Sequence record: MZ779063.1
Reading direction: 5' to 3' (one strand)
Source of the DNA: Staphylococcus phage vB_SauM-UFV_DC4
Length of the DNA: 64,000 nucleotides
A model generated the notes under the pieces. That model ran no database searches. It was given only the letters and a program-made list of their open reading frames with translations, and was not told where the DNA came from. The translations under genes were made by a program, and so were the position numbers. This document shows, in pieces, positions 11,866 to 39,743 of this stretch; position 1 is the first letter of the stretch, and every line of letters starts with the position of its first letter.

Positions 11866-12759
11866 ATGAAATATTATAAATTAAACCAGACAGGAATTGC
11901 TGAAGTATTAGGTATTAGCGGTGAAATGATTTATTGTTACAATCATGTATTTAGGGAAGATGAACTATATCTTAGTGAAGATGAGGAAATTAAACTATCA
12001 GAAATGATTACTAATTACAAAGCAATACCAAAGTATTCAATTGAAAGCATAAATGAAAAAAATATAATAATCACTGCTTATATGGAAGTTGATATGGATG
12101 AAATGGGTACTTTCAGAATAGCTTCTGAAAATTTTAAGTTTGATAAAAAATGTACAGTTGAGGATATCTATAAAATTGTATCTGAAAAAGTATTAAATAA
12201 ATATTTCTCATTTAGTGAAATGAAAGATAAATTGTATCCATTTCATTATGAGGAAGTGACTGAAGAAGAATATAAAAAATATAAAGGAGAATTAATTATG
12301 AATTATTACAAACTAACAGACGAAGGTATTGCAGAAATATTTGATATTAGTGGATTAGATTATGAATTTATGGATTTTACTGAAGATAATAATCAAATAT
12401 TCAGAAATGAAAGTCTTTATTTAAGAGAGGATGAAGTAATACCTCTCTTCAGTATTATTGGATATAGTGTTACTAAAGAATGTGTAATAACTAAAGAAGA
12501 CGATAAATTAGTTGCAAAGGGTGAAACTAAAATATCTGTAGAAGATGGATATGCTAATTTAAGTGTCATTGATTTAGATTTTGATGAAAATAATACAAGT
12601 TTAAAAGATCTATATAAACAATTAGATGAATATTGTAGAAATGAGAAATTTAATATTATTGATTATATAGAAAAAAGAAATTTAAAAGAAGGATATGATT
12701 ATAGATTAGTTACAGAAAAAGAATATAAATATAATAGAGATGAAGAAAATTTTAAGTAA
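11866..12759 (+). CDS. MKYYKL/KENFK-family protein, fused tandem duplicate (two units in one ORF)
   Basis: MKYYKLNQTGIAEVLGI...EEEYKKYKGELI joined directly to MNYYKLTDEGIAEIFDI...EKEYKYNRDEENFK. Confidence 0.6.
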   Translation: MKYYKLNQTGIAEVLGISGEMIYCYNHVFREDELYLSEDEEIKLSEMITNYKAIPKYSIESINEKNIIITAYMEVDMDEMGTFRIASENFKFDKKCTVEDIYKIVSEKVLNKYFSFSEMKDKLYPFHYEEVTEEEYKKYKGELIMNYYKLTDEGIAEIFDISGLDYEFMDFTEDNNQIFRNESLYLREDEVIPLFSIIGYSVTKECVITKEDDKLVAKGETKISVEDGYANLSVIDLDFDENNTSLKDLYKQLDEYCRNEKFNIIDYIEKRNLKEGYDYRLVTEKEYKYNRDEENFK

Positions 12760-12775
12760 AAGTAGGTATTAAATT

Positions 12776-13234
12776 ATGAAATATTATGAATTTAATAAAA
12801 AGGGAATTATTAAAATATTAGGATTGGACACAGCTTATTTAAAAGAAGATGAAGACATTTTTAGAGAAGGGAATCTTTATTTAAAAGAAAATGAATCAAT
12901 AAAGATAAAAGATATTATAACAAATAAAAAAGATATGGAGTTTAATTGCAGTATTTATGAAGGGTCTGAAGATAACTCATTAATGAAAGCTAATTTAAAT
13001 TTCAGACATGGGTCAGGACAACTTTTATTAAATATTGAATATATTGATTTAAAAGAAATAAAAGATCGCACTGTTGAAGAAGTTTACAGATACGCTAAAG
13101 ATTTAGTTTTAAATAAAACATTTTCTTTTAATAAAGCTGAAGAGCTTGGTATATGTTTATATGAAGGAAAAGAATATGAAGAAATTACTGAGGAAGAATA
13201 TAAAAAATACAAAGTAGAAAATACTTTTAAATAA
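12776..13234 (+). CDS. MKYYKL/KENFK-family protein
   Basis: MKYYEFNKKGIIKILGL ... EEEYKKYKVENTFK. Confidence 0.6.
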   Translation: MKYYEFNKKGIIKILGLDTAYLKEDEDIFREGNLYLKENESIKIKDIITNKKDMEFNCSIYEGSEDNSLMKANLNFRHGSGQLLLNIEYIDLKEIKDRTVEEVYRYAKDLVLNKTFSFNKAEELGICLYEGKEYEEITEEEYKKYKVENTFK

Positions 13235-13254
13235 TGAAATGAGGTGTTATTGTT

Positions 13255-13704
13255 ATGGACAAATATTATAAATTAACAGCGGAAGGTATATTTGATGTTT
13301 TCAAATTAGATAAAAAACACATTATATTCCCAGAAGATAAAAATACAATAATAGATTTCAGATCAAAGGAAGAACGTATAGAGAAAATTAATGAACTTAT
13401 ATACTTTAAAGATAATCAAGAAATAACAATAAACTCATTATCTAATTTAACAGACAATATTGTAATAGATAAATCAGGTTCTAAATATACATTTAACCAT
13501 TTAATAGAAATATCATTCACTACCTTTAGTCATAAAAAAAGATATAACAAAACAATCAATGTACCGAATGTATTTAACGGAACTGTAAGAGAAAATAGTA
13601 GTAGAAGTGACTTAGATATACCGATAGATATCAACAATATTGATAAAATAGAATTAACATTTAAAGAATATAGAGATCTAGTAATAAAAGAAACTTTTAA
13701 ATAG
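13255..13704 (+). CDS. MKYYKL/KENFK-family protein
   Basis: MDKYYKLTAEGIFDVF ... KEYRDLVIKETFK. Confidence 0.6.
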   Translation: MDKYYKLTAEGIFDVFKLDKKHIIFPEDKNTIIDFRSKEERIEKINELIYFKDNQEITINSLSNLTDNIVIDKSGSKYTFNHLIEISFTTFSHKKRYNKTINVPNVFNGTVRENSSRSDLDIPIDINNIDKIELTFKEYRDLVIKETFK

Positions 13705-13716
13705 GAGATATTATAA

Positions 13717-14166
13717 TTGAAATATTATAAATTAAATAAAGATGGTTATATTAAATTTTTAGGATTAGATGTTATGCCTGGACTTAAAACCCCAATTATT
13801 GAAAAAGAAATAAAAAATAAAAACTTCATTGTCAAATATTGTAATGGAGCAGATTTTTGTTTTACATTAGATGAAATTAATAAAATGAAAAACAAAGATA
13901 TTTACCCTAAACTTGGATTTGAAAGTTTAACTGAAAAAGTTAATCATGAAATAGAGAATAATCCAATAGTATTTGTTAATAGAAAATATGAAGATGCTAA
14001 ATCTTTAATGCATGTAGATTTAATTATCAATAATGAAGAAATTACAGTAATGACTATGGCAAGATTTAATATTAATTTTTTAAATGATAATTTGTATATG
14101 AAATACTTTGATGAAATAACAGAGAAACAGTATAAAAATATTATAGTAAAAGATTCATTTAAGTAA
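13717..14166 (+). CDS. MKYYKL/KENFK-family protein (TTG start)
   Basis: MKYYKLNKDGYIKFLGL ... EKQYKNIIVKDSFK; TAGGAGA SD 8 nt upstream of TTG. Confidence 0.55.
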   Translation: MKYYKLNKDGYIKFLGLDVMPGLKTPIIEKEIKNKNFIVKYCNGADFCFTLDEINKMKNKDIYPKLGFESLTEKVNHEIENNPIVFVNRKYEDAKSLMHVDLIINNEEITVMTMARFNINFLNDNLYMKYFDEITEKQYKNIIVKDSFK

Positions 14167-14177
14167 AACTCAATTTA

Positions 14178-14227
14178 AATATATATTATAAAATTGTGAA
14201 AGATGTATGATATTTATACATCTTTCT
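14178..14227 (+). promoter_or_regulatory. promoter-like motif aaatatatattataaaattg + hairpin gaaagatgtat..atacatctttc
   Basis: motif copy with downstream stem-loop. Confidence 0.45.
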
Positions 14228-14260
14228 AAAATATTTATTTAAAGAGAGGTGAAAAAGATA

Positions 14261-14677
14261 ATGGGTTCTAATTTTAATTATTATATATTGCAATCGAGTA
14301 TTTCAGAAGCTAGAAAAAGGATTAAGAATAATCTAGATGTAAATGGATATATGGTTATAAGACAAATATTTTTCAGTCATTTAGATTATAAAGATTATTA
14401 TAATATGTATCATAAAGTAAATAATGTAGAAGATTATTACAATGATATTATATTAGAAAGTATTAAGGATATTATATTTGATGAAGAAGGTAAACTTAAT
14501 GAAGAAGTAGCATTTAGTTTAATTAAAGGTTCTAATTCGAATATATGTGCTTTAATTAAAGATAATAAAGGTAATTACAAAATTTATAAAAAAGATAAAT
14601 ATGTAATTAAAGCTATAGAAGATTTATTATCTGAGAAAGATTATAAAAGAATATTGGTTAAAAATACTTTTAAATAA
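14261..14677 (+). CDS. KENFK-family protein (divergent N-terminus)
   Basis: ends EKDYKRILVKNTFK; ATG 14261 preferred over ORF-track GTG 14249 (GGTGA SD spacing). Confidence 0.5.
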   Translation: MGSNFNYYILQSSISEARKRIKNNLDVNGYMVIRQIFFSHLDYKDYYNMYHKVNNVEDYYNDIILESIKDIIFDEEGKLNEEVAFSLIKGSNSNICALIKDNKGNYKIYKKDKYVIKAIEDLLSEKDYKRILVKNTFK

Positions 14678-14722
14678 TTTGAAAGTGGATGCAACTTACT
14701 TTTATTATATTACAAGTGAGAG

Positions 14723-15388
14723 TTGGTGATTTTATTGATAAAAATGCATTTAATAAACTTTCAAAAAAGGTCTATGAATAGTTATAAGAAGAATTTAAAC
14801 ACAATTGTACTTTTCATAGATTATGATAAAAATATTTTCAACCAAATTAATAATCAATTAGATATAGATGTATTAGGTAATGATACTATAAGATTAAATA
14901 ATGCTAATTATTCATTAATGTTAGATGAGAAGATTTTTAGTTCTGAAAGGACAACAATTGATTTCTATAATAAAATAGTAAATAATGATATATTAAATAT
15001 TATTAAAGAAAATATATCTAATGTAGATAATTATTCTAAATTAAAAGAAATCAATAATATGACTGATAGTGAATTTAATGATATTATTAATAAAGATAAT
15101 TTATTTAAATGTCAAAATAAATACTTCAGTATGAATAAAATACCTTATATAGAAAAAGAAATATCTGAAAGTTTTTATCTAGATCATTTTAAAGAGATTA
15201 ATTTAGATTTTATATTTGAGAAGCTTTTTGAAGAGAATAGAGAAGATGAAGAAAAATTAAAGTACGTTTATACTTTAGCTGAATTATTTCTAACACTCAA
15301 ACAAGGTAAGAATATATTTTATAATTATAATAAAGAGGTAGATAAGAAATATTATAGATCTATATTTATAAATTCTTTATTTAATTAA
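14723..15388 (+). CDS. hypothetical protein (start uncertain)
   Basis: 221-aa ORF; internal ATGs at 14744/14774 are possible starts. Confidence 0.4.
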   Translation: MVILLIKMHLINFQKRSMNSYKKNLNTIVLFIDYDKNIFNQINNQLDIDVLGNDTIRLNNANYSLMLDEKIFSSERTTIDFYNKIVNNDILNIIKENISNVDNYSKLKEINNMTDSEFNDIINKDNLFKCQNKYFSMNKIPYIEKEISESFYLDHFKEINLDFIFEKLFEENREDEEKLKYVYTLAELFLTLKQGKNIFYNYNKEVDKKYYRSIFINSLFN

Positions 15389-15389
15389 T

Positions 15390-15707
15390 ATGATAAGAAA
15401 GGAGAGAAATAATATGAAGAAAATATACGGATTTAAAATAAAATATAATAAAAAAGTGGTAGATACTTTCACTTTTGAAAGTTTTGAAGAAGCTATGAAT
15501 AAACTAGAATTATCATTATTAGAAATTTATGACTCAGAAGATTTTACAACTATGCAATTAATTTTAAACACATATGACATTGAAGAAATTAATGAAGATA
15601 GTTTTAAAGATAAATTAAGACTAAATCATCTTAATCACATTAAGAATTTTAGTATTGAATTGTTTTCTAAATATATTAACACTGATAAGGAAGAAGGAAT
15701 TGCATAA
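15390..15707 (+). CDS. hypothetical protein
   Basis: 105 aa, AAGGAGAGA SD. Confidence 0.45.
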   Translation: MIRKERNNMKKIYGFKIKYNKKVVDTFTFESFEEAMNKLELSLLEIYDSEDFTTMQLILNTYDIEEINEDSFKDKLRLNHLNHIKNFSIELFSKYINTDKEEGIA

Positions 15708-15922
15708 TGTTTGAAGAAAGTAAAGTACCATTTTCATTTATTTATAAAGAAACTAAATATTTCCTACACAGAAGAAATATTAAGAATTTCCCTAATGGAG
15801 ATTCTGAATTCTTATTGTATGGAGATGAAAATGGGAAGTCATTCATAATAGAAGAAAGTAAATTAGAAAACTTAATTGAACAACATGAAGTTGAAGTATC
15901 TTACGAAGAAGATATTATTTAA
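15707..15922 (+). CDS. hypothetical protein
   Basis: 71 aa, TAATG overlap coupling with upstream gene. Confidence 0.4.
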   Translation: MFEESKVPFSFIYKETKYFLHRRNIKNFPNGDSEFLLYGDENGKSFIIEESKLENLIEQHEVEVSYEEDII

Positions 15923-15970
15923 ATATATATTATTAAATTGAGGTAATGACATATTATTTGTCATTACCTC
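15921..15970 (+). promoter_or_regulatory. promoter-like motif aaatatatattattaaattg + hairpin gaggtaatgaca..tgtcattacctc
   Basis: motif copy; 12-bp perfect stem. Confidence 0.45.
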
Positions 15971-16002
15971 TAATATATTAAAAATCAAAGGAGAAAACAA
16001 AC

Positions 16003-16386
16003 ATGAAGAAATTTTTAGTATTACCATTATTATTCGTTTTATTATTAACAGGGTGTTCTCAGGCTGATAAAGTTAGCCAAAATATGTCTGAAGAGTCAGA
16101 TAATTTTAATGTAGTTAGAAAAGTAACTGTTATAAATGCTATTAAAAATGATATTATTTTTCAAATGTCTGGACGTATGTCTATTAAAGCAGATAAAGAA
16201 GACAATCAATTAGAAATAGTTGTAGAAAATGAAGATGGTAAATATCAGAAACACATCATTGGTTTATCTGATAATGTTTCATATACTGTTGAGGATGTTA
16301 CAACTAAGAATGTAAGCAAATACCAATATGAAATTAATTATAATCCTAAAATGTGGATTCCTGCAAAACCAGATTATAAAGACTAA
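16003..16386 (+). CDS. lipoprotein (lipobox LLTGC)
   Basis: MKKFLVLPLLFVLLLTGCSQ signal peptide plus lipobox. Confidence 0.6.
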   Translation: MKKFLVLPLLFVLLLTGCSQADKVSQNMSEESDNFNVVRKVTVINAIKNDIIFQMSGRMSIKADKEDNQLEIVVENEDGKYQKHIIGLSDNVSYTVEDVTTKNVSKYQYEINYNPKMWIPAKPDYKD

Positions 16387-16415
16387 TTATTATAATAGAA
16401 TGGAGAGAATGACTT

Positions 16416-16724
16416 ATGTCTAAGAAAAAGAAATTAGAAAAAAGACTTAATGTAAGAATTAATCAAGAACAAAAGAAAGCTATTTTAAAACGTGAAGATA
16501 TCGATAGAATGGATTTTGAGTTCATTACATTAGATAAAGAGAAACATGATGAAGAAGAAAAATTTGATATCAAAGTAAAATCTAACGATAAGTTTTCTCT
16601 AATTATCATTATTAAATTCTTTTCTAAATTGTTGAATTTTAGTATTAAAAGAGATAAGAAAAAAGAAAAAGTTAAAGAAGATATAAAAGATGATAATGAA
16701 GTTTCTAATTTAGATAAGAAATAA
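16416..16724 (+). CDS. hypothetical K/E-rich protein
   Basis: 102 aa, low complexity. Confidence 0.35.
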   Translation: MSKKKKLEKRLNVRINQEQKKAILKREDIDRMDFEFITLDKEKHDEEEKFDIKVKSNDKFSLIIIIKFFSKLLNFSIKRDKKKEKVKEDIKDDNEVSNLDKK

Positions 16725-16726
16725 TA

Positions 16727-16768
16727 AAAATGCCATAATACACAATTTAAGTGTATTATGGCAAATTA
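16727..16768. terminator. bidirectional terminator (tgccataataca..tgtattatggca)
   Basis: 12-bp inverted repeat flanked by A-run upstream and T-run downstream, between convergent genes. Confidence 0.5.
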
Positions 16769-16769
16769 T

Positions 16770-17072
16770 TTATTTTTCAGGTTTAAAACGGTCTTTAAGT
16801 CTAGGATATAGACGTAGATGCGCTTTACGAGTAGGATCTGTAACAACAATTTGATTTGTTCTAGGATTTCTACGTTTACGCATATCTTCAGGTTTAACTT
16901 CAAGGACACCAATTTCAGGGATAATAGTTTTAGTTTGATCAGCATCATTTGCAGATTCAACAATTATTTCTATCATCTCATTATAAGCATCAACTAGTTC
17001 TCTTTGTGTTAATCCAGTACGTCTAGACCATTCTCTAAAGAAGTGTTTTTGATCTTGAATTTGATTTAGCAT
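16770..17072 (-). CDS. HU/IHF/TF1-family histone-like DNA-binding protein
   Basis: LTQRELVDAYNEMIEII N-terminal helices; beta-arm MRKRRNPRTNQIVVTDPTRKAHLR resembles HU ARKGRNPQTGEEIEIPA. Confidence 0.7.
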   Translation of the reverse strand: MLNQIQDQKHFFREWSRRTGLTQRELVDAYNEMIEIIVESANDADQTKTIIPEIGVLEVKPEDMRKRRNPRTNQIVVTDPTRKAHLRLYPRLKDRFKPEK

Positions 17073-17134
17073 TTTATTAGTTCCTTTCCATATAATATAT
17101 TTTTAATTTTTTTAGAAAATTGTTAATATTTTAC

Positions 17135-17163
17135 TAGCTTTTTTCTAAATTTTATGATATAAT
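17135..17163 (+). promoter_or_regulatory. sigma-A-like promoter with extended -10 (tagcttttttctaaattttatgatataat)
   Basis: near-identical to the 581-609 element; TGaTATAAT. Confidence 0.4.
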
Positions 17164-17263
17164 ATTGTTATGGAATTTCTTAGTTGTAAAAAAATAATTT
17201 TTTGCAATAACTTAAATTTTTATATGGTTTCGAATTTTTAATTATAAGGAGAGTCAGATATCG

Positions 17264-18886
17264 TTGGGTAATTATTTAAGAAAAATTACGAAGAATATAC
17301 AAGATGAGGTCAGTACAAAAGAGTCATTTAATGAGGATGTAATATACTTTAGGGAGAATGAAAACCTAGAAGATATTATATCTGATATTTACAAATCAGT
17401 AGAATTTATTAAAGGCGTAAAATTCATTGATTGTAAAGTTGTTCCTCCAAGTGAAGTTTATGAGTACAATCAAATGACAGACAAACAATTTAAAGCAAGA
17501 GATTTTAGAAAAATCAACGTAGAAGAATCAAAACTATTAGAAGTTCAAATTACTGTAGAATTTGAATCAGCTGAAGGGGAAAAAGAATTATACACACATA
17601 AATTAGATTTCCCTGAACTTATAGAAGGTCAGTATTATTATATTAATGATAATAAGTTCTTCCCTATCTTACAATTAGCTGATACTGAATTCTATAAACC
17701 TAAAGCAAGTACAGTAGTAATGAAAAACTTATTACAACCATTATCAGTAAATGGTTCTAAAAAAGATGAACTTATTGATGATGATAAGAAAATGCCTAAG
17801 AAGTTAAGAGGTAGAACATTATACTTAGAAGTATTTAATAAAAATAAACCTGTTCCAGCATTTTTATTCTTTATTGCTAAAATGGGTCTAGATGAAACAT
17901 TTGAATTCTTAGATATTAAAGAATATTGTGAATTAGTAGATACCAACGATGAAAAAGATGATAAACACTACTATTTTAGAATTAATAATAAAATAACTAT
18001 TCAAGTTGATAAAGAATGGTTAGATCAAGACGATAGATATAGAACTTCTATGGTCTTATGTATTAAAGATTTGTTTAAAGGTATGAGAGCAGGATTAGAT
18101 AAAGTATATGATAAAGAATTCTGGCTAAAAAATTTAGGATCTGTATTTAGTGGTTCTACTAACGTTGACACTAAAATTGAAAAAGCTAATTCTATGATTT
18201 TATCATTTGATAGAATTTTAGATAGTCGTACTAAAAATATTTCTAGATTAGATCCAGAAGATAAAGAATCAACTTATCATGTAGTTAAATACATGTTTAA
18301 AAACTTTGATAATCTTAATTTATTAGATAATACAGATTTAGCTAATAAACGTTTAAGAGTATTAGAATACTTAACTTATCCACTGAATAGAAAGAACTCT
18401 GATACATCTTATCGTATGATTAATTTCACAGATAAGAAACGTACAATTAAAAATCTTAAGGGATTATTCTCAGGTGTACCTCGTGATTTCTTATTAAAAA
18501 CTATAGGAACATCTGAAGGAATTAGATATTCCAATGCAGTTAATACAATTGACTTATTTACTAGAATTCTTAAAATGACTAAAGCAGGTCCACAAACTGC
18601 TGTTGATACTAGTAAACCATCTATTAGAACTATTAATATCAATAATACTTATTTCGGTAGAATTGATTTAATAGCAACATCTTCAAACAATCCAGGTATT
18701 ACACGTACATTAACACCATTCTGTGAGGTTAAAGATCCTGGTGAGAATGGTTCATTCTATTTTGAAAATAAACCTAACATCAGAGAAAATATTGACACAG
18801 ATAATTTAGATAAACTAGAGAAAGAATCTGAAGACAATGAAGTTGTATTAGATATTAAAGAAATTGTAGAAGAGGATGACGAATAA
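17264..18886 (+). CDS. putative RNA polymerase beta'-like subunit, N-terminal segment (TTG start)
   Basis: translationally coupled (TAATG) to downstream beta' segment; AAGGAGAG SD 10 nt before TTG; no strong conserved motif recognised. Confidence 0.45.
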   Translation: MGNYLRKITKNIQDEVSTKESFNEDVIYFRENENLEDIISDIYKSVEFIKGVKFIDCKVVPPSEVYEYNQMTDKQFKARDFRKINVEESKLLEVQITVEFESAEGEKELYTHKLDFPELIEGQYYYINDNKFFPILQLADTEFYKPKASTVVMKNLLQPLSVNGSKKDELIDDDKKMPKKLRGRTLYLEVFNKNKPVPAFLFFIAKMGLDETFEFLDIKEYCELVDTNDEKDDKHYYFRINNKITIQVDKEWLDQDDRYRTSMVLCIKDLFKGMRAGLDKVYDKEFWLKNLGSVFSGSTNVDTKIEKANSMILSFDRILDSRTKNISRLDPEDKESTYHVVKYMFKNFDNLNLLDNTDLANKRLRVLEYLTYPLNRKNSDTSYRMINFTDKKRTIKNLKGLFSGVPRDFLLKTIGTSEGIRYSNAVNTIDLFTRILKMTKAGPQTAVDTSKPSIRTININNTYFGRIDLIATSSNNPGITRTLTPFCEVKDPGENGSFYFENKPNIRENIDTDNLDKLEKESEDNEVVLDIKEIVEEDDE

Positions 18887-24305: not shown

Positions 24306-24400
24306 AAAGCGTAACATAAGATATTTTAATTATATATTATAATTATGAAGATATAATAATATTAATTATATCTTTAATAAAAATAAAGGAGAAATTAAAA
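24304..24400 (+). repeat. copy 1 of ~95-bp cassette (aaagcgtaac..atatattataattatgaag + hairpin + SD)
   Basis: highly similar to 25337-25420 and 26034-26133 by direct comparison. Confidence 0.6.
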
Positions 24401-24678
24401 TGACAGAATTTGAAAATGAAATTAAAGTATCAAAAGAGGAGAAGAAGATTAAAAGATTTATTGATCAAGGTATTGATAATTTATCTGATACTGTAGGAGA
24501 GAATATTGAAGGTATTCCATTATCTTTAACTGATTATTTTCCTAAAATAAAGAAATTAATTATTAAATTAATTGATCGAGAAGAAAGTGATGAAATTAAA
24601 ATGACAAATGAATTAGGTGAAGTATTTAAATTTAATAGAACTTCACACGATATTTATTTAACATCAACTAAATTTTAA
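24400..24678 (+). CDS. hypothetical protein
   Basis: 92 aa, AAAGGAGAA SD. Confidence 0.45.
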   Translation: MTEFENEIKVSKEEKKIKRFIDQGIDNLSDTVGENIEGIPLSLTDYFPKIKKLIIKLIDREESDEIKMTNELGEVFKFNRTSHDIYLTSTKF

Positions 24679-24715: not shown

Positions 24716-25348
24716 GTGGTATGTATGATTAAAGTCAATGAGCTATTAACAGAAGTTAAGGAAATAAAAACAAATGACAGTTATACGAAATTAATAAATG
24801 AGTATAGAGATATTATTAATGAAGAATATATATCTTATAAACCGTTAAAAGATTATTACAATTTTATTATATATTATCTAGAGAAATCTAGAAATCAAGC
24901 ATTGGAATCTAACAACTTTAATGAATCCAATTTAAATATCAAATTATTAATAGAAGATCTAATGATATTAAAAGATATTGTTAAATCTAATATTTTTGAT
25001 ACTAAAGAAGTAATCAGATCTACTGGGTTTAAATTAACAAATGGTAGTACATTTGATAGAGTTATCAAATACATTAAAGATAAACTAGATGAATTAATTA
25101 TAGAAATAAATTCAAATAATTATAAATATCAAAATATCTATTTCTATCTACCTGAACTAAATAATCTATTGCATAATACAATTCATATAGAACGTGTTTT
25201 AGATAAATATAAGAATAATGTAGATATTATTAATATAAATAAATATAATTTATTTGAAATGATGCCTTGTAATGATATTATGGATAAAGATGAATTTTAT
25301 ATAATGGTTAATCATTTATATGATTTAGGTGTTTTAGAAAAAGCGTAA
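24716..25348 (+). CDS. hypothetical protein
   Basis: 210 aa; preceded by ttctatgatccaa element. Confidence 0.5.
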   Translation: MVCMIKVNELLTEVKEIKTNDSYTKLINEYRDIINEEYISYKPLKDYYNFIIYYLEKSRNQALESNNFNESNLNIKLLIEDLMILKDIVKSNIFDTKEVIRSTGFKLTNGSTFDRVIKYIKDKLDELIIEINSNNYKYQNIYFYLPELNNLLHNTIHIERVLDKYKNNVDIININKYNLFEMMPCNDIMDKDEFYIMVNHLYDLGVLEKA

Positions 25349-25420
25349 CATGTAATAAAATAAGTATATATTATAATTATGAAGAAAGATAAAGTATTAA
25401 TATCTTTCTAAATAAATCAA
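25337..25420 (+). repeat. copy 2 of promoter/hairpin cassette
   Basis: gaaaaagcgtaacatgtaa..aagtatatattataattatgaagaaagata..tatctttc..ggaggaatttaaa. Confidence 0.6.
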
Positions 25421-25606
25421 ATGGAGGAATTTAAAATGAAAAAGAATTTATTATTAAAATCAGCAGTGGGATTTGGGTTAGGTATTGTATTAGGTGTAGT
25501 AAGTAATAAAATTGATGAAATGGTTATGCAGAAGGAAATGGAAAAGCAAATCTTTAAAAGAGCTTCAGAAATAACTTTTGAACATCCATTCAATAATCTA
25601 AAATAA
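25421..25606 (+). CDS. small membrane peptide (MEEFKMKK..GFGLGIVLGVV..NLK)
   Basis: 61 aa, single TM; paralog of 26134-26238 and 26850-27059. Confidence 0.45.
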   Translation: MEEFKMKKNLLLKSAVGFGLGIVLGVVSNKIDEMVMQKEMEKQIFKRASEITFEHPFNNLK

Positions 25607-26033: not shown

Positions 26034-26133
26034 TTTGAAAAAGCGTAACGTAAGATATTTTAATTATATATTATAATAATGAAGAAAGAGATTATCATTA
26101 ACTCTTTCTAATAAATTAAAAGGAGAAATTATT
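26034..26133 (+). repeat. copy 3 of promoter/hairpin cassette
   Basis: gaaaaagcgtaacgtaagatattttaattatatattataataatgaagaaagag..ctctttc. Confidence 0.6.
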
Positions 26134-26238
26134 ATGAAAAACTTAGTATTGAAATTAGTAGCAGGATTTGGATTAGGAATTGTGATGGCAGTTGTTTTAG
26201 ACAAGATTGAAGAAATGACGTTCTCTAATTTAAAATAA
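26134..26238 (+). CDS. small membrane peptide (MKNLVLKLVAGFGLGIVMAVV..SNLK)
   Basis: 34 aa, not in ORF track; SD AAAGGAGAA; paralog of 25421-25606. Confidence 0.4.
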   Translation: MKNLVLKLVAGFGLGIVMAVVLDKIEEMTFSNLK

Positions 26239-27474: not shown

Positions 27475-27981
27475 ATGAAAAAATTATTAATGACATTAGC
27501 ATCAATCGCTTTAATCGCAGTTATCGGAGCAGCAGGGATATTTGGTTATAGTAGTTTTAAAAGCTTAACAGTCAATAAAGAAGATAGTAAGACTGAAGAA
27601 GTATCTAAAAAGAAAGAAGACAAAAAAGAAAAGAAAGAACAAGAAGAATCAGATAATGTAGAAGTAAATCAACAACAAGATCAAACTCAAGAAGTAAATA
27701 ATAATGAACGACAAAATCAAACTACAGAAGATAATAATACAAATGTACAACAAAATCAACAACAAGAACCAGTAGTTGAAGAGAAAACTCAAGTAACAGA
27801 TAATGAAGGTAATAATATAGATGATATGGATTCAGAAGAATTTATTTCTAAATATACGGAAGGAATGGATGAAGAAGAAGCTCAAACAGTAAAAGACATG
27901 GCTGAAGAAGATTCAGGATATGAAGATTTCTTACGTGGACAAGTAGAAGCTAGACAAAATGGTCAAGGCGGAAATTACTAA
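27475..27981 (+). CDS. membrane-anchored Q/N/E-rich protein, paralog 1
   Basis: MKKLLMTLASIALIAVIGAAGIFGYSSFK N-terminal anchor then low-complexity acidic region. Confidence 0.55.
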   Translation: MKKLLMTLASIALIAVIGAAGIFGYSSFKSLTVNKEDSKTEEVSKKKEDKKEKKEQEESDNVEVNQQQDQTQEVNNNERQNQTTEDNNTNVQQNQQQEPVVEEKTQVTDNEGNNIDDMDSEEFISKYTEGMDEEEAQTVKDMAEEDSGYEDFLRGQVEARQNGQGGNY

Positions 27982-28004: not shown

Positions 28005-28472
28005 ATGAAAAAAATCTTAAGTATTTTAACAGCGATAGCTTTAATCACAGTTATCGGAGCAGCAGGAGTATTCGGATATAGTAGTTTTAAAGAATTAAAT
28101 AATAGTAAAGATAGTCATAAAGTTGAAACAAGTAAAAAACAAAAAGAATTAGATGATAAAAATAACACTCAACAACAAGAACAAAATACATCAAAAGAAA
28201 ACAACAATATCCAACAACAATCAAATGAAGATAGCCTAACAGAAAATATGGATGAAGAATATAAAAAACAACAGGAAATGTATGAAAGGCAATCAAAAGA
28301 TGAAGCTCCAGAACCGGATTCTATAATTGGCAACCCACCAAAAAATTATGAAACTCCAGAAAAAGATAAAATAACTATAAGTGAGTTAAGAGAAGTTTTA
28401 GGCGATGATATTGATGAAAGTAAAATTGATGAAGCAAAAGCGTCTGGCGAATATATTAATGATGAAGAATAA
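28005..28472 (+). CDS. membrane-anchored Q/N/E-rich protein, paralog 2
   Basis: MKKILSILTAIALITVIGAAGVFGYSSFK. Confidence 0.55.
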   Translation: MKKILSILTAIALITVIGAAGVFGYSSFKELNNSKDSHKVETSKKQKELDDKNNTQQQEQNTSKENNNIQQQSNEDSLTENMDEEYKKQQEMYERQSKDEAPEPDSIIGNPPKNYETPEKDKITISELREVLGDDIDESKIDEAKASGEYINDEE

Positions 28473-28503: not shown

Positions 28504-28980
28504 ATGAAAAAATTATTAGTATCATTATCAATCTTAGCAGTAATTGTAGTATTAGTAGCGGCAGGTGTGTTTGGATATTCAAAATATAAAGAAGTAGAAA
28601 TGAAACAACAGAATTTAGAAACACAATTAGAAGAAAAAAATTCCAATGAGCAAACTAATGAAAACGATCAACAACAAGAACAAGCAAATACAAATGAATC
28701 TCAAAATCAAGAAAATAGTTCAACAAAAAACAATAACGACAATAAACAAAAAGTATCTAGAGACAATGTATTTGACTATGCTTTAGCTGCAGTAAATGAA
28801 GTAGGTGACGCTGATTTAATGAAATTCCAAGAACCTTCTTACAGTGATGGTGTATGGACAATTGACACTAATAATAAATCTGGTTCAGGATCTAATACTA
28901 TAAAAGTATACGATGATGGCTGGGTACAGATATATGATGGATCTGGTGAAATAGCTCATGAAACAAAAATAGAACTATAA
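28504..28980 (+). CDS. membrane-anchored protein, paralog 3 (globular C-terminal domain)
   Basis: MKKLLVSLSILAVIVVLVAAGVFGYSKYK; C-terminal part less low-complexity. Confidence 0.55.
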   Translation: MKKLLVSLSILAVIVVLVAAGVFGYSKYKEVEMKQQNLETQLEEKNSNEQTNENDQQQEQANTNESQNQENSSTKNNNDNKQKVSRDNVFDYALAAVNEVGDADLMKFQEPSYSDGVWTIDTNNKSGSGSNTIKVYDDGWVQIYDGSGEIAHETKIEL

Positions 28981-33168: not shown

Positions 33169-33627
33169 ATGAGATACTTTAAAGGTATAGTAGCAGGAAA
33201 AGACTTTTTCTTAAAAGCAGATAATGAAGAAAATGCCATTAAGGAATTAGCATCAAAAGAAATTAATTCTATAGGATCTTTTACAATGTTAAGTAATGAA
33301 AAACAGAAATACCTAATAATTTTCTTTAATGAAGATGAAGATAAATTTGTTGTTGGAAATGGATTAGAATCATATATATCATTAGACAGTCTTAAATCTG
33401 AATTAGAATCTAAAGATTTAGAATGTTATTATTTAGATTTAGGTAATACAGATAATATCGAGATAAACGGTATTATAAAAAATCAAGAATACACATTAAC
33501 AGAAATAATAATGGAAAGTATTAAATTAACTATGAATGATTTTTATCAACAAGTTATAAATTCTGTATTAACTGAATTAACTGAAAAAGAATACAAAAAT
33601 TCAATAGTTGTTAAAAATTTTAAATAA
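33169..33627 (+). CDS. KENFK-family protein
   Basis: ends TEKEYKNSIVVKNFK. Confidence 0.55.
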   Translation: MRYFKGIVAGKDFFLKADNEENAIKELASKEINSIGSFTMLSNEKQKYLIIFFNEDEDKFVVGNGLESYISLDSLKSELESKDLECYYLDLGNTDNIEINGIIKNQEYTLTEIIMESIKLTMNDFYQQVINSVLTELTEKEYKNSIVVKNFK

Positions 33628-33646
33628 CTAGGAAGGAATAGAAATA

Positions 33647-34117: not shown

Positions 34118-34127
34118 TTACTATTTA

Positions 34128-34150: not shown

Positions 34151-34172
34151 TAATTAAAATACAGGAGATGAA

Positions 34173-34520
34173 TTGGATATGTTAAACGATACTAAAAAAG
34201 TTTTAGACAGAATATATGACAAAATAAATGGTGATTTAATTGTTATTTCAGAGTGTAAAGATCTATTTGATAAGGAATTAAATTACACTTTAACTGAAGG
34301 TAATGAAGAAACAACAAATCTTGATTATTTGGCAGATTCTTTAATTGTAGTTTCTTCAGATATATTTACTTTAAATGAAGTACTTAATATTGATGAAGAA
34401 ACTATTAATAATGAACTATTAGCAGAATTTAAACTAAGCTATAGAATGATACAGAATTTTCATATGAAATTAGAATTAAAAAAATATAAATTAAAAAAGA
34501 TTAAAACCTCGGTTGAATAA
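34173..34520 (+). CDS. hypothetical protein
   Basis: 115 aa. Confidence 0.45.
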   Translation: MDMLNDTKKVLDRIYDKINGDLIVISECKDLFDKELNYTLTEGNEETTNLDYLADSLIVVSSDIFTLNEVLNIDEETINNELLAEFKLSYRMIQNFHMKLELKKYKLKKIKTSVE

Positions 34521-34539
34521 ATATAGGAGATGATTAGGA

Positions 34540-35025
34540 ATGAATTATTTAAAGAATGAAAAAGGGGAGGTCTTTCCAGTCAATGAAGAAGGAATGGAGA
34601 ATATCATATTCTTTCTTCTAGACTACTCACAGAAAAATGATTATAACACAATGAATTTGATTAAAGAGATAAATGATCACGTGATGAAAGGCGAAAATAT
34701 AAGTAATGAATTTATTAATGAAAAAACAAAAGAAACGATATTAACTTTAGGTAAAGTAAAAGGTAATTTAACTAATGAATTAGCTAGAAGTGGTTATATA
34801 GTTAATTTCTCTAGAAATAAAATATCACTATCGATATATGTAAAAAATAATAGTTTTAAATTAGTAAGAATTTCAGATCATAATATTAATAAAAAAATAA
34901 ATAAAAAAGGTGTAATCAGTAATAGATTTGACGGACAATTAGTATGTAAAAATAATCTAGTTAAATCTTCTGATTTGAAAAAGCATGGAATTGATATTAA
35001 TGAAGGAATATATTATTTAGAATAG
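34540..35025 (+). CDS. hypothetical protein
   Basis: 161 aa. Confidence 0.45.
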   Translation: MNYLKNEKGEVFPVNEEGMENIIFFLLDYSQKNDYNTMNLIKEINDHVMKGENISNEFINEKTKETILTLGKVKGNLTNELARSGYIVNFSRNKISLSIYVKNNSFKLVRISDHNINKKINKKGVISNRFDGQLVCKNNLVKSSDLKKHGIDINEGIYYLE

Positions 35026-35026
35026 G

Positions 35027-35320
35027 ATGAAACTATATATGAAAAAGATAATAATGTTTTTAGGTATTTTGTTACTAACAACGGTATTGGTCGGTTGTGG
35101 AGAAAGTGTTGATTCAAAAGATAAAAAAGATTCAATCAAAACAGTAACTATTTATAGTAAAGGCGGTAAAGTATTACATCAATATGAAGGAAAAGTTAGT
35201 GCTGAGAGAGTAACGGATAACAAATTTACTAAAATTGATATAGACGGTAAGAAATTAAGAGTTGTAAATGCAGATGTAGTTATTGAAGAAAAAGGTATTG
35301 AGAAATTTGAAACAAAATAA
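35027..35320 (+). CDS. lipoprotein (lipobox LVGC)
   Basis: MKKIIMFLGILLLTTVLVGCGES. Confidence 0.55.
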   Translation: MKLYMKKIIMFLGILLLTTVLVGCGESVDSKDKKDSIKTVTIYSKGGKVLHQYEGKVSAERVTDNKFTKIDIDGKKLRVVNADVVIEEKGIEKFETK

Positions 35321-35325
35321 AGATT

Positions 35326-35371
35326 AAGTATATATTATAATTATGAAGAAAGATATTATCATATATCTTTC
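35326..35371 (+). promoter_or_regulatory. promoter-like motif aagtatatattataattatgaag + hairpin gaaagatat..atatctttc
   Basis: fourth copy of the cassette seen at 24.3-26.1 kb. Confidence 0.45.
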
Positions 35372-35382
35372 TAATAAAATTA

Positions 35383-35694
35383 ATGGAGGAATTTGTTATG
35401 GCAAAATTAAATGAAGAAGTATTAAGAGACTTTCAAGTAAAAACTGAAATTGATGGAGAATTTGAAGTAATGGAATCTGATGAGCTTGGTGTTGATGAAG
35501 CTTATGAAATTGAATTAATTAAAGAATTGGGATTAGATGTCGATTCAAGTGTATTCTCTTATGCAATATCAGAAAAAGATGATGAAGAAAATACGTATAC
35601 TTTAGAATATAGTCATGAAGGCGTTCTATTAACTATTCATGATATCGATTTTGAAAATGGTATTCATGATACTATTTATAAAAATGTAATTTAA
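35383..35694 (+). CDS. hypothetical acidic protein (MEEFVM.. N-terminus)
   Basis: 103 aa; same SD/leader as small-peptide genes. Confidence 0.45.
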   Translation: MEEFVMAKLNEEVLRDFQVKTEIDGEFEVMESDELGVDEAYEIELIKELGLDVDSSVFSYAISEKDDEENTYTLEYSHEGVLLTIHDIDFENGIHDTIYKNVI

Positions 35695-35704
35695 TGATTT
35701 AAGT

Positions 35705-35753
35705 ATAGCTGATATCTTTAACGGATATCAGCTATATTATTTTTATTTTTTTA
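35705..35753 (+). terminator. rho-independent terminator (atagctgatatc..gatatcagctat + T-run)
   Basis: 12-bp stem followed by ttatttttattttttt. Confidence 0.6.
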
Positions 35754-35777
35754 CTTAAAGGAGATGAAAAGGATAAT

Positions 35778-36389
35778 ATGAATTATTTTGAATTGGAATA
35801 TACAGGTTTAATTAATAATAATAAATTAGATAATCTAGTTCTACACAAACAAGAAAATGAAGAAATTGAATCGGGTGTTTTAAATATGGTTTTATTTAAA
35901 TTGTATCTAAAAGAATTCTATAATGATAATATGGATGATAATGATTTATGTAAGAAACTAAAAATGGAAATAAGAAGTATTCATAGTTATAATAATTCAG
36001 AAATTTATATTAATGAAGACTTTGCTGAAATATATGATGGTATTAATCCGAATAATAATATTAAATCAGGAAAAATAAATAAAGATTATGAATATTTATT
36101 TAAATTTATTAAAGATAATATAAATGAAAAAGATTTAAATAATATACATGTGATTAAATTTACAACATTTGAAATAGAGAAATATAAACCTGTTGTGATT
36201 TTTATAAACTCAGATAAACTTAGAATTAAGACCAATAAATCAATTAGTAGATATACATCAACAAATGAATTTGTATTCTATAATATTTCAAGCGAAAGTT
36301 TATATACATTAATGAAAAATACAAATAGAATAAGAAATATAACGGAAAAAGAATATAAAAAAGAATTAGTTAAAAGGAGTTTTTTATAA
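35778..36389 (+). CDS. KENFK-family protein
   Basis: MNYFELEYTG.. ends TEKEYKKELVKRSFL. Confidence 0.55.
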   Translation: MNYFELEYTGLINNNKLDNLVLHKQENEEIESGVLNMVLFKLYLKEFYNDNMDDNDLCKKLKMEIRSIHSYNNSEIYINEDFAEIYDGINPNNNIKSGKINKDYEYLFKFIKDNINEKDLNNIHVIKFTTFEIEKYKPVVIFINSDKLRIKTNKSISRYTSTNEFVFYNISSESLYTLMKNTNRIRNITEKEYKKELVKRSFL

Positions 36390-36937
36390 TGTATGAAGTT
36401 AATAAAAAATTTAAATATGCTAAAAGAGATAAAGAATTCACATTATTCCACCATAAATCAAAAGAAAAAATAACTGATTCATTTATAATTAATAATTATA
36501 TTTCATATGTATTATATCAATGCTACGAAAGAACACCAGGAAATGCAGAAGTTTGGTTGGAAATTAATGATATAAATAATATAAAAGGTGATTTCTTATT
36601 TAAATTTATGTTTGACAACAGACCTTCTTTTGGTTCTAATTATTTTCCTAAGTGTAAATTAAATATACAAGATAACAGTGATAATAATATTGTAACTATT
36701 GAATTTAGTGATAAATATAAAAGACATAATTTTATTCTAGAAGAAATATCTAAATTTAATAATGTTCATATTAATTTTTATGAAGAAGTATTATTTACTA
36801 ATGAAGATGAAGAATTCAAGTTATTAAAGAATGTATTTAAAACTGATAACATTAAATATTACCAAAATAAAGATTTAATTAGTTATATTTCAGACAAAGA
36901 AGCTAGAAAAATTTTAGTAAAAGAAAACTTTAAATAG
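36389..36937 (+). CDS. KENFK-family protein
   Basis: ends DKEARKILVKENFK; TAATG coupling. Confidence 0.55.
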   Translation: MYEVNKKFKYAKRDKEFTLFHHKSKEKITDSFIINNYISYVLYQCYERTPGNAEVWLEINDINNIKGDFLFKFMFDNRPSFGSNYFPKCKLNIQDNSDNNIVTIEFSDKYKRHNFILEEISKFNNVHINFYEEVLFTNEDEEFKLLKNVFKTDNIKYYQNKDLISYISDKEARKILVKENFK

Positions 36938-36953
36938 AATAGGGGCAAATAAA

Positions 36954-37487
36954 TTGAATAAATATTTTAAATTTAAATTAAATAATAAAAGTGATTACGA
37001 TGTATTTAAATTTTCAGGAAATGAAGAAGAAATAAGCGATTCTAAAATTATAGAGTCTTATTTTGATTATATGTTTAATTATTATATAAATGAAGCAATA
37101 CCTGACTCCAGTATGATTAATATTGCTGTATTTACTGAAGGTAAAAGAAAAAGATTATTGAGATTTACTATAGATAAACCACCAATTTATATAAAAGAGC
37201 CAGTTAGTACTTTATTTATGAATGAAAATGATGAAGATAAACAAATTAATTTTAAAGAATTTAACGAAATTAAAAAATTTATACACGAAAAGATTATGGA
37301 ATTGAATAAAGGTGAATTTTATATTTATATTGATTATAATTTTGATTATTCTTATAGAATAGATTACGATGATGTATTTGATAAAATATTATTTAATAAA
37401 AATAATCTAAATCTTTATTCATCATTTATTAAAGAAACAGATGAAAATGAATATAAAAATTATCTAGTAAGAGAGAATTTTAAATAA
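36954..37487 (+). CDS. KENFK-family protein (TTG start)
   Basis: MNKYFKFKL.. ends ENEYKNYLVRENFK. Confidence 0.55.
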   Translation: MNKYFKFKLNNKSDYDVFKFSGNEEEISDSKIIESYFDYMFNYYINEAIPDSSMINIAVFTEGKRKRLLRFTIDKPPIYIKEPVSTLFMNENDEDKQINFKEFNEIKKFIHEKIMELNKGEFYIYIDYNFDYSYRIDYDDVFDKILFNKNNLNLYSSFIKETDENEYKNYLVRENFK

Positions 37488-37504
37488 GGAAGTGAGACAG
37501 ATAA

Positions 37505-38281
37505 ATGGAATATGTTATGATAAATAAATTATTAACAAAAAATGATTCATCTGAATTAAAAATAAACATGGTTAAACTATATAAAGAGGAAGAAGACTTT
37601 TTCAATTTCTTTTTAAACTTTATTATAGAATATAATTCATATTATATAGGAAATTATAAATACTTTTATAGTATAGATTCATTATCAGATTATAATTCAG
37701 ATTATCAAATAAATGGAAATCCTTATGTGCCATTTGAGGAAGGGATAAAGGTAAATGAAGTCATTCATATTTATAAAAATAAATTATTTAGGAATATAAG
37801 TAAAGATATTGAAAATAGAATAACCGTACTTTATGTAGAAGACAAAGAAGACGATATTTTCTATTATATATTAATATCTAATTACTTTAATAAAAAATTT
37901 AAAAAAGAATATAAAGAAGAACTTCCCGATAAAGAAAAATTGTTAGCTAGACTTATAGTAAGATCCTTTCTAAATGAAAAAATTTTATTAGATTCACATT
38001 CAGAATTTTTAGTTATTAAAGATAAAGAAAAATTGAATAATTTAATTAATAATTTAATGAAAAATCAAAAATACAAAATTTTAAACTTTGATTTCTTAAG
38101 TAATAGGGAATTAAAATATAATGGAGTAATATTTAATACAAATTTATATGATAATAAACTAATCCTGAAGTATTTAAAAGGAATAGACTACAAAGATATT
38201 ATTAATAAAGATAAAGAAAAAATTACGTTTATAAATGAAAAAGGATATAAAAAACTAGCAGTGAAAGAATCATTTAAATAA
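37505..38281 (+). CDS. KENFK-family protein
   Basis: ends KGYKKLAVKESFK. Confidence 0.55.
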   Translation: MEYVMINKLLTKNDSSELKINMVKLYKEEEDFFNFFLNFIIEYNSYYIGNYKYFYSIDSLSDYNSDYQINGNPYVPFEEGIKVNEVIHIYKNKLFRNISKDIENRITVLYVEDKEDDIFYYILISNYFNKKFKKEYKEELPDKEKLLARLIVRSFLNEKILLDSHSEFLVIKDKEKLNNLINNLMKNQKYKILNFDFLSNRELKYNGVIFNTNLYDNKLILKYLKGIDYKDIINKDKEKITFINEKGYKKLAVKESFK

Positions 38282-38359
38282 ATAATAAATATTCTCATCC
38301 ATTCATTATATAATAACTTTTAATTATATAATAATTTTTAGAATGGATGAGATGCTTTT

Positions 38360-39019
38360 ATGAGTAATTATTTATATCGTTTTAACAAAGAGAATGTAAA
38401 TATCTTCTATCATAAAAGGACTAATAATGGTCATAAAATGTTATTTAATAATAGTAATGATAAAGATAGATCTATATACTTAATAAATACTGATGAAGAA
38501 ATCAATAATATGGAACTAGTATCTAAATATATTGCTGGAAAAGTATTTGAAATACTAAACCAAGAAAATATGAAAATAGTACATATGGATTTCTTTAATA
38601 GTAAATTAGAATTCTTTATAAGTAGATCATCCAAGAATAAATATATAATGAATATGTATTTTAGTTTAAAAAGTTATAATGATCTAATAGAAAATGAAAA
38701 AGAATTTATAGATAGTGTTAATGAGCTTAATTTAGACTTTTTAAAATCAGTTTCTTTAGATCAAGACAATAATCATGTATTAGATATGACATTAATATTT
38801 TTAATAGATAAAAATAAAATAGATGAATTTATTAAAAATCTATTTTACATTAATTATGTAAAGATAATAGAATTTATAATAGATACTATATCAGTATATG
38901 CAGATGATTACAAGAAATTTAATGAAGAAATAAATATTCTTTTGGATCATAGAAATTTTGTAGAGGAAATAACATATAAAGAATATAAAAAGATAATGAC
39001 AAAAGAGATGTTTATTTAA
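38360..39019 (+). CDS. KENFK-family protein
   Basis: ends TYKEYKKIMTKEMFI; preceded by long stem tctcatccattc..gaatggatgaga. Confidence 0.5.
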   Translation: MSNYLYRFNKENVNIFYHKRTNNGHKMLFNNSNDKDRSIYLINTDEEINNMELVSKYIAGKVFEILNQENMKIVHMDFFNSKLEFFISRSSKNKYIMNMYFSLKSYNDLIENEKEFIDSVNELNLDFLKSVSLDQDNNHVLDMTLIFLIDKNKIDEFIKNLFYINYVKIIEFIIDTISVYADDYKKFNEEINILLDHRNFVEEITYKEYKKIMTKEMFI

Positions 39020-39032
39020 GGAGTAATTAACT

Positions 39033-39743
39033 ATGAAGATTTCAGCCAATAAAGAATTATTAGGAAAGAAAGTTATACCTTTAGGTTTTAAACAACTTAA
39101 TAACTTATATAAAGATCATGATTATGTATATTTAAGAATTCCTGAAATATTTAATGTATTTGATAAGTATCAATTTAAAGATGATAAATTTGTATATCTT
39201 AAAACAGAAATAAAACCCAGTACTATTGTAGATTTAATAGATTCTTTATCAAGTGGTTTTAATTGGTTAATAAATGAATATATTTCTAATGATATACTAA
39301 ATATACATTATATAAAGAAAAATTTATTAGACATTTCCAATAGTGAATATAAAACTCTAGAAGAAACAAGATCTCAGTTAGATTTAGAATTAGAATTCAT
39401 AAGTAGTAATGAAAAACAAAGAAAGCAATCTAATATTTTAATAAAGGATATTCATAAAGAAATAAATTATATAAGGAATGAATACACAAAAGTATTCACT
39501 CTTAAGAAAAGTAAAACCAGAAATAATAAACCAATAAAAATAAAAATTAGAAATTTATATGATGAAGATCCAATATCTATATTAAAAATAATATTAGACT
39601 TAGGAGAAGAATATTGTATGAATAGTACTATATTTAACGCATTTACTTATTCATTAATGTTAACAAATAATTTAGATTTCATAGACGAAAAAGAATTTCA
39701 GGATATAGTTAAGAAAGAGAAAGTGAAAAATACTTTCATTTAA
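39033..39743 (+). CDS. KENFK-family protein (most divergent)
   Basis: ends KEFQDIVKKEKVKNTFI. Confidence 0.45.
   Translation: MKISANKELLGKKVIPLGFKQLNNLYKDHDYVYLRIPEIFNVFDKYQFKDDKFVYLKTEIKPSTIVDLIDSLSSGFNWLINEYISNDILNIHYIKKNLLDISNSEYKTLEETRSQLDLELEFISSNEKQRKQSNILIKDIHKEINYIRNEYTKVFTLKKSKTRNNKPIKIKIRNLYDEDPISILKIILDLGEEYCMNSTIFNAFTYSLMLTNNLDFIDEKEFQDIVKKEKVKNTFI

Follow-up and report, generated by a model that had tools for sequence, protein, structure and literature searches.

A lineage-specific family of small proteins with a conserved C-terminal tail and variable cores in Staphylococcus jumbo phages

Multigene families of fast-evolving ORFans are a known phenomenon in viruses, and those of giant viruses and poxviruses are lineage-specific expansions. 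The ankyrin/PRANC (F-box-like) proteins of poxviruses carry a constant C-terminal element, and SspB ends in a ClpX-binding peptide, LRVVK-COOH. Large lytic phages also possess early takeover islands, such as the pre-early genes of T4 and T5 and the host-takeover module of SPO1. Among phages, Bacillus phage G encodes a zinc-ribbon family of ~35 copies that represents a lineage-specific expansion (Iyer et al. 2021, PMC7824862). Here, we analyzed a 64,000-nt stretch of the genome of Staphylococcus phage vB_SauM-UFV_DC4 (MZ779063.1; this whole stretch is referred to as the window), which encodes a family of small proteins with constant termini around variable cores. We propose, with a probability of roughly 0.55, that these proteins are a lineage-specific tandem expansion of small, soluble, cytoplasmic accessory proteins made early in infection and built on a conserved terminal clasp around diverged cores. 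New here are the family itself, the share of the genome that it takes up, and its two-part signature at the termini, none of which is described in the databases and papers searched.

An original prediction made from the letters of the window alone had listed 12 open reading frames (ORFs) comprising 13 units. All of them were found on the plus strand (u01 to u13, Table 1), and plausible ribosome-binding sites (RBS) precede most of the twelve ORFs. One further ORF, at 6874-7428, brings the total in the window to 14 tail-bearing members. It matched the hidden Markov model (HMM) of the C-terminal tail at its exact C-terminus (E = 8e-4), was also retrieved by both cross-validated models described below, and has an ortholog in Staphylococcus phage S6 (213524-214078) that matched with E = 1.8e-6. 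The near-invariant tail claimed for the family was present in the members, including the final one (u13), which had been thought to lack it and carries IDEKEFQDIVKKEKVKNTFI with 4 extra residues; only in u01 was the tail shortened. For u06, the real start is probably the ATG at 14261 (MGSNFNYYILQ). The family members are hydrophilic and soluble, with isoelectric points of 4.3-8.9 and neither transmembrane segments nor signal peptides.

The tail follows the consensus h-[TS]-(D)-E-K-E-[YIV]-K-x-h-h-[VI]-[KR]-x-[NTGS]-F-[KR]-COOH. Run against all 348 six-frame ORFs in the window, the tail HMM retrieved the 12 ORFs with E-values between 2e-10 and 3.5e-7, while the best of the remaining 336 reached 0.019. 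As a check on circularity, one HMM was built from the array-1 tails alone and another from the array-2 tails alone. The first returned all six array-2 tails as its next matches (E 1e-5 to 6e-4); the second retrieved u04, u05, and u06 and missed u02 and u03. Mean pairwise identity was 45% over the last 17 residues, compared to 19% in the cores and 7% at the C-termini of non-family proteins. In a full-length scan of S6, 34 of 36 tail HMM matches lay at the exact C-terminus, and the census of C-terminal segments revealed no extension beyond the tail. Not a single match was obtained in reversed and five times shuffled S6 proteomes. Thus, the possibility named with the original prediction as one that would refute it, that the terminal similarity is purely compositional, was not borne out, as conservation is tied to position: across 35 tails, position -2 is F in 34, position -10 is K or R in 34, position -13 is K in 28, and position -5 is K or R in 29.

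At the codon level, the information in these 35 tails resides in codon positions 1 and 2 and position 3 varies freely, and therefore the constraint is on the protein and not on the DNA. Only an RBS is conserved downstream of the tail codons. These two observations rule out that the tail is a regulatory DNA motif placed in the 3' ends of genes. A position-specific tail is hence common to the family, and selection acts on its protein sequence. Read with general knowledge of helix capping, the tail looks like a strongly capped short helix that follows a beta-strand. The helix would open with an S/T-x-x-E capping box and a hydrophobic staple and close with a Schellman-type N/G plus hydrophobic residue, before the protein stops at F-K-COOH. 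This reading agrees with the structure models of the tail.

To take the census beyond the window, the whole genome of S6 (LC680885.1) was assembled from pieces and the tail profile was iterated on C-terminal segments. S6 encodes 36 ORFs that end in the tail, all on the plus strand, amounting to ~13% of its 273 annotated features. Seven of them belong to array 1, one is the ortholog of u07, and six belong to array 2. Lone tail genes occur at 47.7, 179.4, and 213.5 kb (47,703-47,954; 179,439-180,347; and the ortholog of window 6874-7428). A third region at 58,333-81,054, outside the window, holds ~20 tail genes encoding proteins of 160-290 aa with a few other genes between them, and the tails there read …EITDEKEIKKYLVKNNFK. 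Several of these members outside the window have a hairpin-like motif at the N-terminus, e.g., MIYYKNKVNGEIYEV. The two regions of the window are 96% and 99.7% identical to S6 at the DNA level. Further matches are PALS_2, Madawaska, MarsHill, and LY01, with Machias, PB50, AH12, and SA1 more remote. G+C content is about 20-27% over the region of interest, in a genome that is very AT-rich.

The family is confined to the uracil-DNA jumbo phages of Staphylococcus, i.e., DC4, S6, PALS_2, MarsHill, Madawaska, SA1, and their relatives. A tblastn search of 50,697 phage records gave matches in Staphylococcus jumbo phages only. The family profile matched 22 of 1.84 billion representative proteins; those with a named source came from Staphylococcus jumbo phages, and the rest resemble them. 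With the heterogeneous family alignment, large databases returned only two S6-type proteins, one being the S6 protein itself, and an alignment of the 42-residue C-terminal segments returned none. In IMG/VR, the first of two back-translated tail patterns had 0 matches and the second had 29 single matches, none of which was an in-frame ORF end. In the 42 kb surrounding the ligase genes of AR9 (a Bacillus phage) and LPJP1 (a Listeria phage), no tails were found. No member has a known domain: the 13 units and the 23 other tail-bearing S6 proteins had no match at threshold in Pfam-A, PHROGs v4, or NCBIfam r20 (best Pfam E-values 8e-4 to 0.02, far under gathering scores), and the sequences of the PDB gave no match to the family. 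The family had not been recognized in the first inspection of the window, and rightly so; it is likewise absent from the papers that describe the DC4, PALS2, SA1, and MarsHill-group genomes and from a review comparing jumbo phages.

A second conserved element lies at the N-terminus. The shared MKYYKL..G peptide that had been ascribed to all units is real, but its full form is confined to u01-u05. In a reduced form, YY or YF within the first 16 residues, it was found in 9 of the 14 members compared to 3 of 54 other genes of the window (p = 7e-6). Likewise, an N-terminal aromatic pair occurs in 24 of 36 S6 members and in 34 of the 209 other ORFs (p = 2e-9). The tail and the N-terminal YY/YF motif therefore co-occur, and this co-variation argues for a single domain architecture. 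The N-terminus of the protein encoded at window 34540-35025, MNYLKNEKGEVFPV, also resembles the family motif; this protein has no tail, and by its sequence it may be a degenerate family member.

The cores had been described as unrelated or highly diverged. This holds for most members but not for u01-u05, which are linked among themselves, nor for the pair u09 and u10. BLASTP linked u01, u02, and u03 strongly, u02 with u04, and, weakly, u03 with u05 and u09 with u10. When the last 18 residues were removed, phmmer searches with the S6 members and their database matches resolved an array-1 cluster, a u09/u10 cluster, and a few small groups, while 18 sequences stood alone. When ortholog alignments stripped of the tail were compared by hhalign, 10 of 91 family pairs were connected at a probability of at least 50%, as opposed to none of the 224 family-control pairs and one of the 120 control-control pairs; u09 and u10 reached 92% without their tails. 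Thus, most cores are either unrelated or have diverged past the reach of these shallow profiles. Same-strand neighbours, paralogy within u01-u05 and u09-u10, and a difference in copy number between DC4 and S6 together mark a tandem, lineage-specific paralog family.

Structure prediction also points to the termini. With an alignment of 13 paralogs, AlphaFold modelled u05 at a predicted local distance difference test (pLDDT) score of 53, with confidence only in the N-terminal 20 and the C-terminal 20-25 residues. With an alignment of 15 subfamily-A sequences, u03 reached a pLDDT of 86.7 and a predicted template-modelling score (pTM) of 0.77. Its elements (E, strand; H, helix) are E3-6, H8-14, two short strands, a three-stranded meander at 54-91, H100-112, E115-117, E134-137, and H139-150. 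The last two place the tail in the model as an integral strand plus helix, at a pLDDT of 86-96. The tail of u03 is thus predicted to form a strand and a capped helix packed into an alpha/beta domain, and the N-terminal strand may pair with the C-terminal one. The columns that are invariant (M1, Y3, Y4, G10) or nearly invariant (E141, Y142, F151) in the subfamily-A alignment all lie in the termini. A search of BFVD returned the family alone, including two members that are 22-26% identical to u03 and superpose with TM-scores of 0.72-0.74; these are independent models of the u03 fold, for which BFVD gave no convincing structural relative. An RNase H-like nuclease was considered and rejected, as the DEDD-type acidic set (strand 1, helix 1, strand 4) is absent and no acidic residue is conserved in the strands of the core.

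The arrays turn over between sister phages. DC4 and S6 share 98% identity in the ligase and 92-100% in most family genes. In S6, different paralogs occupy the slots of u01 and u02, with best matches of 50% and 32% identity, and array 1 comprises seven separate genes in S6 and six units in DC4. At the u01/u02 junction (12271-12297), DC4 carries a 27-nt in-frame deletion relative to PALS_2, in which the counterparts of u01 and u02 are two separate genes. The deletion removed the last codons of u01 (the VKENFK region) and its stop and left the RBS and ATG of u02 intact, resulting in a fused ORF of 297 aa.

Array 1 is part of an early transcription unit. The start of u01 is 2 nt past the stop of the co-oriented gene for the NAD-dependent ligase, and RNA sequencing of SA1 assigned the ligase (ORF63) to the early class (PMC9414953). 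An AR9-type early-promoter core, TATATTAT, has been predicted upstream of 29 MarsHill genes (bioRxiv 2020.12.14.422802). In the window, this core is not over-represented overall; 13 of its 18 plus-strand copies are intergenic, and intergenic DNA makes up 13% of the sequence (p = 1.3e-8). Besides the extended motif in front of u06 (Table 1), four sites with the extended motif TATATTATAA are located within the third array of S6. Array 1 fills the interval between the ligase gene and the gene for the beta subunit of the non-virion RNA polymerase (nvRNAP; window 9875-18886). The corresponding interval of AR9 (locus L039, 19962-27817) holds small genes driven by early promoters, including those for Ku, HU, and the Ung inhibitor Ugi, and that of LPJP1 is almost empty.

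A recurrent unit accompanies the early promoters. At 14176-14226, 24313-24411, 25347-25445, 26047-26145, and 35311-35409 (DNA repeat families D1/D6/D9), the promoter TATATATTATAA…TGA is followed by an inverted repeat, GAAGAAAGAT…ATCTTTC, and then by an RBS. Going by its sequence, the promoter-linked inverted repeat is a candidate for a conserved stem-loop in the 5' untranslated region of early transcripts.

Array 2 is bounded by two strong and unusually long terminator-like hairpins and adjoins the structural module, which is encoded on the opposite strand. Neither an early promoter nor an AACA(N6)TW late promoter was found before u08. The copy of TATATTAT at 35733 was rejected as the promoter of array 2, as it falls inside the terminator hairpin, in its 3' arm, and does not show the extended consensus. 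In the gap between u11 and u12 (38281-38360), an inverted repeat, CTCATCCATTC…GAATGGATGAG, surrounds an AT-rich loop. Just past array 2, where coding changes over to the minus-strand structural module, 39940-40503 encodes an extremely acidic, D/E/S-rich protein of 187 aa.

Together, these results are best explained by the tandem expansion on a conserved clasp proposed above. The clasp would consist of an N-terminal aromatic beta-strand, (K)YY(K)h, and a C-terminal beta-strand with a short capped helix, and these two terminal elements would close around a core domain that has diverged past recognition between paralogs. The confident termini of the u03 and u05 models and the co-occurrence of the two motifs make a shared clasp the best supported of the three options originally offered for constant ends with variable middles. 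The near-invariant lysines and the strict F-K-COOH end suggest that the clasp is also a shared interaction surface. It would thus supply a constant structural or docking surface that includes the lysines at -13, -10, and -5, which are presumably exposed, and the tail would have a role in docking. The variable cores would in turn supply differing specificities, resulting in a diversified set of host-interaction proteins for takeover or anti-defence that is made early in infection.

A role in host takeover or anti-defence would fit the early units, the fast turnover and divergence, the synteny with the Ugi-containing island of AR9, and the absence of any known Ung inhibitor reported for uracil-DNA Staphylococcus phages (PMC10303552). 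No family member resembles Ugi or another known inhibitor.

Several observations weigh against this interpretation. Most cores appear unrelated in HH comparisons, albeit of shallow alignments, and therefore the tail could sit on proteins without common ancestry. Array 2 is flanked by two strong terminators and no promoter was recognized for it, so that early timing is supported for array 1 but not for array 2. Within ortholog pairs, the tail is conserved just modestly better than the core. Compared to the 99 kb of SA1 that were used, the median identity of best matches was 37% for family and 57% for non-family genes, a difference that was not significant (p = 0.13) and in which non-family genes lying outside the 99 kb were wrongly scored as zero. 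In addition, divergence between DC4 and SA1 is high for other small genes of the region, too.

The strongest rival holds that the tail is a signal and not a fold element, i.e., a recognition peptide at the C-terminus that works on its own, as a docking motif or degron, and tethers otherwise unrelated early proteins to one hub, for instance a host Clp protease or unfoldase, a phage chaperonin or AAA ATPase, the ribosome, or nucleic acid. We consider this pure tag model a possibility with perhaps one chance in a few, and hence a serious one. The exact-terminus rule, with 34 of 36 matches ending there and no extensions in the segment census, is what a terminal signal would produce, and the proteins that bear the tail range from 75 to ~300 aa, with cores that HH comparison does not relate to one another. 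Three S6 members, the short ones at 47703 and 80764 and the long one at 179439, have no N-terminal motif when inspected by eye. Moreover, the near-invariant lysines at -13, -10, and -5 exceed what a buried structural helix would need, and a helix with its own capping signals suggests an independently stable unit. However, AlphaFold packs the tail well as a strand and helix and does not leave it flexible, and the N-terminal motif co-varies with the tail. Furthermore, no host protein or other phage protein turned up with anything resembling the tail, within the limit that large databases are not searchable by so short a motif.

A more far-reaching idea, which we regard as rather improbable, is that the tail and the N-terminal strand form a universal docking module by which ~36 early proteins plug into one hub (e.g., host Clp/AAA+ or a phage chaperonin/ATPase), with each core delivering or blocking a different host target. 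Such a phage adaptor library would be analogous to the PRANC/F-box families of poxviruses and might include the Ung inhibitor that these phages appear to lack.

A sorting, packaging, or processing tag had been the second option originally offered. A docking role may persist from it, as discussed above; its virion form found no support. In that form, the tail would be a virion-packaging or prohead-protease signal, and the members would be internal or ejected proteins trimmed at (I/L)-x-E, similar to the T4 internal proteins or the phiKZ inner-body families. The tails of arrays 1 and 2 do contain I/L-T/S-E, which we take to match the L/I-x-E cleavage motif of the T4 gp21 type. A gp21-like prohead protease is encoded by these phages (AR9 annotation; UFVDC4_00239), and array 2 is a neighbour of the structural module. 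However, the third-array tails read I-T-D-E-K and thereby lack the cleavage motif, the u03 model packs the tail into the fold, and array 1 follows the early ligase, with an early promoter before u06. Liquid chromatography-mass spectrometry of DC4 virions detected no family member among 15 proteins, at shallow coverage (PMC10638138). We therefore consider a virion signal very unlikely.

Just as unlikely is the third original option, that the conserved ends serve as DNA recombination handles for the shuffling of core cassettes. The arrays are indeed dynamic, as seen from the different paralogs in the first two slots, the copy number, and the 27-nt junction deletion. However, the DNA copies of the tail are only 70-76% identical over 46-53 nt without long exact repeats, which argues against such handles, and third codon positions are free while the amino acids are kept. 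Finally, K/E/Y/N-rich proteins at a genomic G+C content of 22% could produce a compositional artefact, and the K/E/N/Y-rich tail might seem to point that way. This explanation is refuted for all practical purposes by the empty searches of reversed and shuffled proteomes, the low identity at non-family C-termini, the positional conservation, and the recovery of each array by the HMM of the other.

Other small gene families occur between the two arrays. Three tandem paralogs at 27475-27981, 28005-28472, and 28504-28980 belong to a small family unrelated to the tail family; a DNA repeat within them (D2) is 67-77% identical over 132 nt, and hhalign linked the first and third genes with 98% probability over the N-terminal 34 residues. 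Three short paralogous plus-strand ORFs at ~25437, ~26135, and ~26866 (repeat D5) start with MKKN/I… followed by a G/L/I/V-rich stretch and, from this composition, likely encode small membrane proteins. The first two lie directly 3' of a unit of early promoter and hairpin.

Table 1 Family members and associated regulatory features in the window of Staphylococcus phage vB_SauM-UFV_DC4
Feature	Position	Strand	Remarks
14th family member	6874-7428	+	184 aa; tail EFEKEVKKYLVKNNLK; without N-terminal YY motif
u01, subfamily A	11866-12297	+	shortened tail …EVTEEEYKKYKGELI; in-frame fusion to u02
u02, subfamily A	12298-12759	+	tail LVTEKEYKYNRDEENFK; own RBS and ATG kept inside fused ORF
u03, subfamily A	12776-13234	+	AlphaFold-modelled member, pLDDT 86.7, pTM 0.77
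u04, subfamily A (diverged)	13255-13704	+	BLASTP and hhalign links
u05	13717-14166	+	TTG start; identical to UFVDC4_00170 (100%)
Early-promoter motif TAAATATATATTATAAAATTGTG, then hairpin	14176-14226	+	5' of u06; extended consensus; repeat family D9; promoter at 14182
u06	14249-14677	+	core unrelated to other members by profile comparison
u07, isolated member	33169-33627	+	tail HMM
Intrinsic-terminator-like hairpin	35702-35748	+	strong, unusually long, 16 pairs and T run; immediately 5' of array 2
u08	35778-36389	+	tail HMM
u09, subfamily B	36389-36937	+	identical to UFVDC4_00213
u10, subfamily B	36954-37487	+	identical to UFVDC4_00214
u11	37505-38281	+	tail HMM
u12	38360-39019	+	tail HMM
u13	39033-39743	+	tail with 4-residue insertion, …IDEKEFQDIVKKEKVKNTFI
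Intrinsic-terminator-like hairpin	39750-39800	+	strong, unusually long, 19 pairs and T run; closes array 2

Staphylococcus jumbo phages such as S6, PALS_2, MarsHill, DC4, and SA1 are studied for therapy and biocontrol, and ~80% of their genes have no assigned function. Roughly one in eight genes of S6 can now be placed in one undescribed family with constant termini and hypervariable cores. Dozens of 'hypothetical proteins' thereby collapse into one tractable problem, in which the partner of the clasp would provide a handle on all members. Should the family turn out to be a diversified host-interaction or anti-defence set, phages would offer a new case of counter-defence by paralogs; a tail that acts as a shared docking signal would amount to a new principle of targeting and give S. 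aureus biology a portable tag.

Akin to expansions of the phage G type, the family comprises dozens of paralogs, mostly in same-strand tandem arrays, that diverge fast and belong to one viral clade. Unlike the phage G family, it has no zinc ribbon or recognizable domain and is defined by an N- plus C-terminal signature instead of a central domain. With the poxvirus PRANC proteins and SspB it shares, by analogy only, a variable target-binding body, a short constant C-terminal element, and many paralogs; it differs from them in that there is no ankyrin, F-box, or other Pfam match and in that the tail is predicted to be packed. C-terminal docking peptides (SspB XB, ssrA-like, PDZ ligands) are free and flexible and bind a defined receptor; in the family, 34 of 36 tail matches obey the exact-terminus rule, and AlphaFold predicts the tail as a packed helix. 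Similar to the early takeover islands of AR9/PBS1 between ligase and nvRNAP beta, the family consists of small, fast-evolving ORFans, and array 1 is early and occupies the syntenic slot. However, the islands of AR9/PBS1, T4, T5, and SPO1 hold unrelated single genes, while the slot in the Staphylococcus phages is taken by one expanded family.

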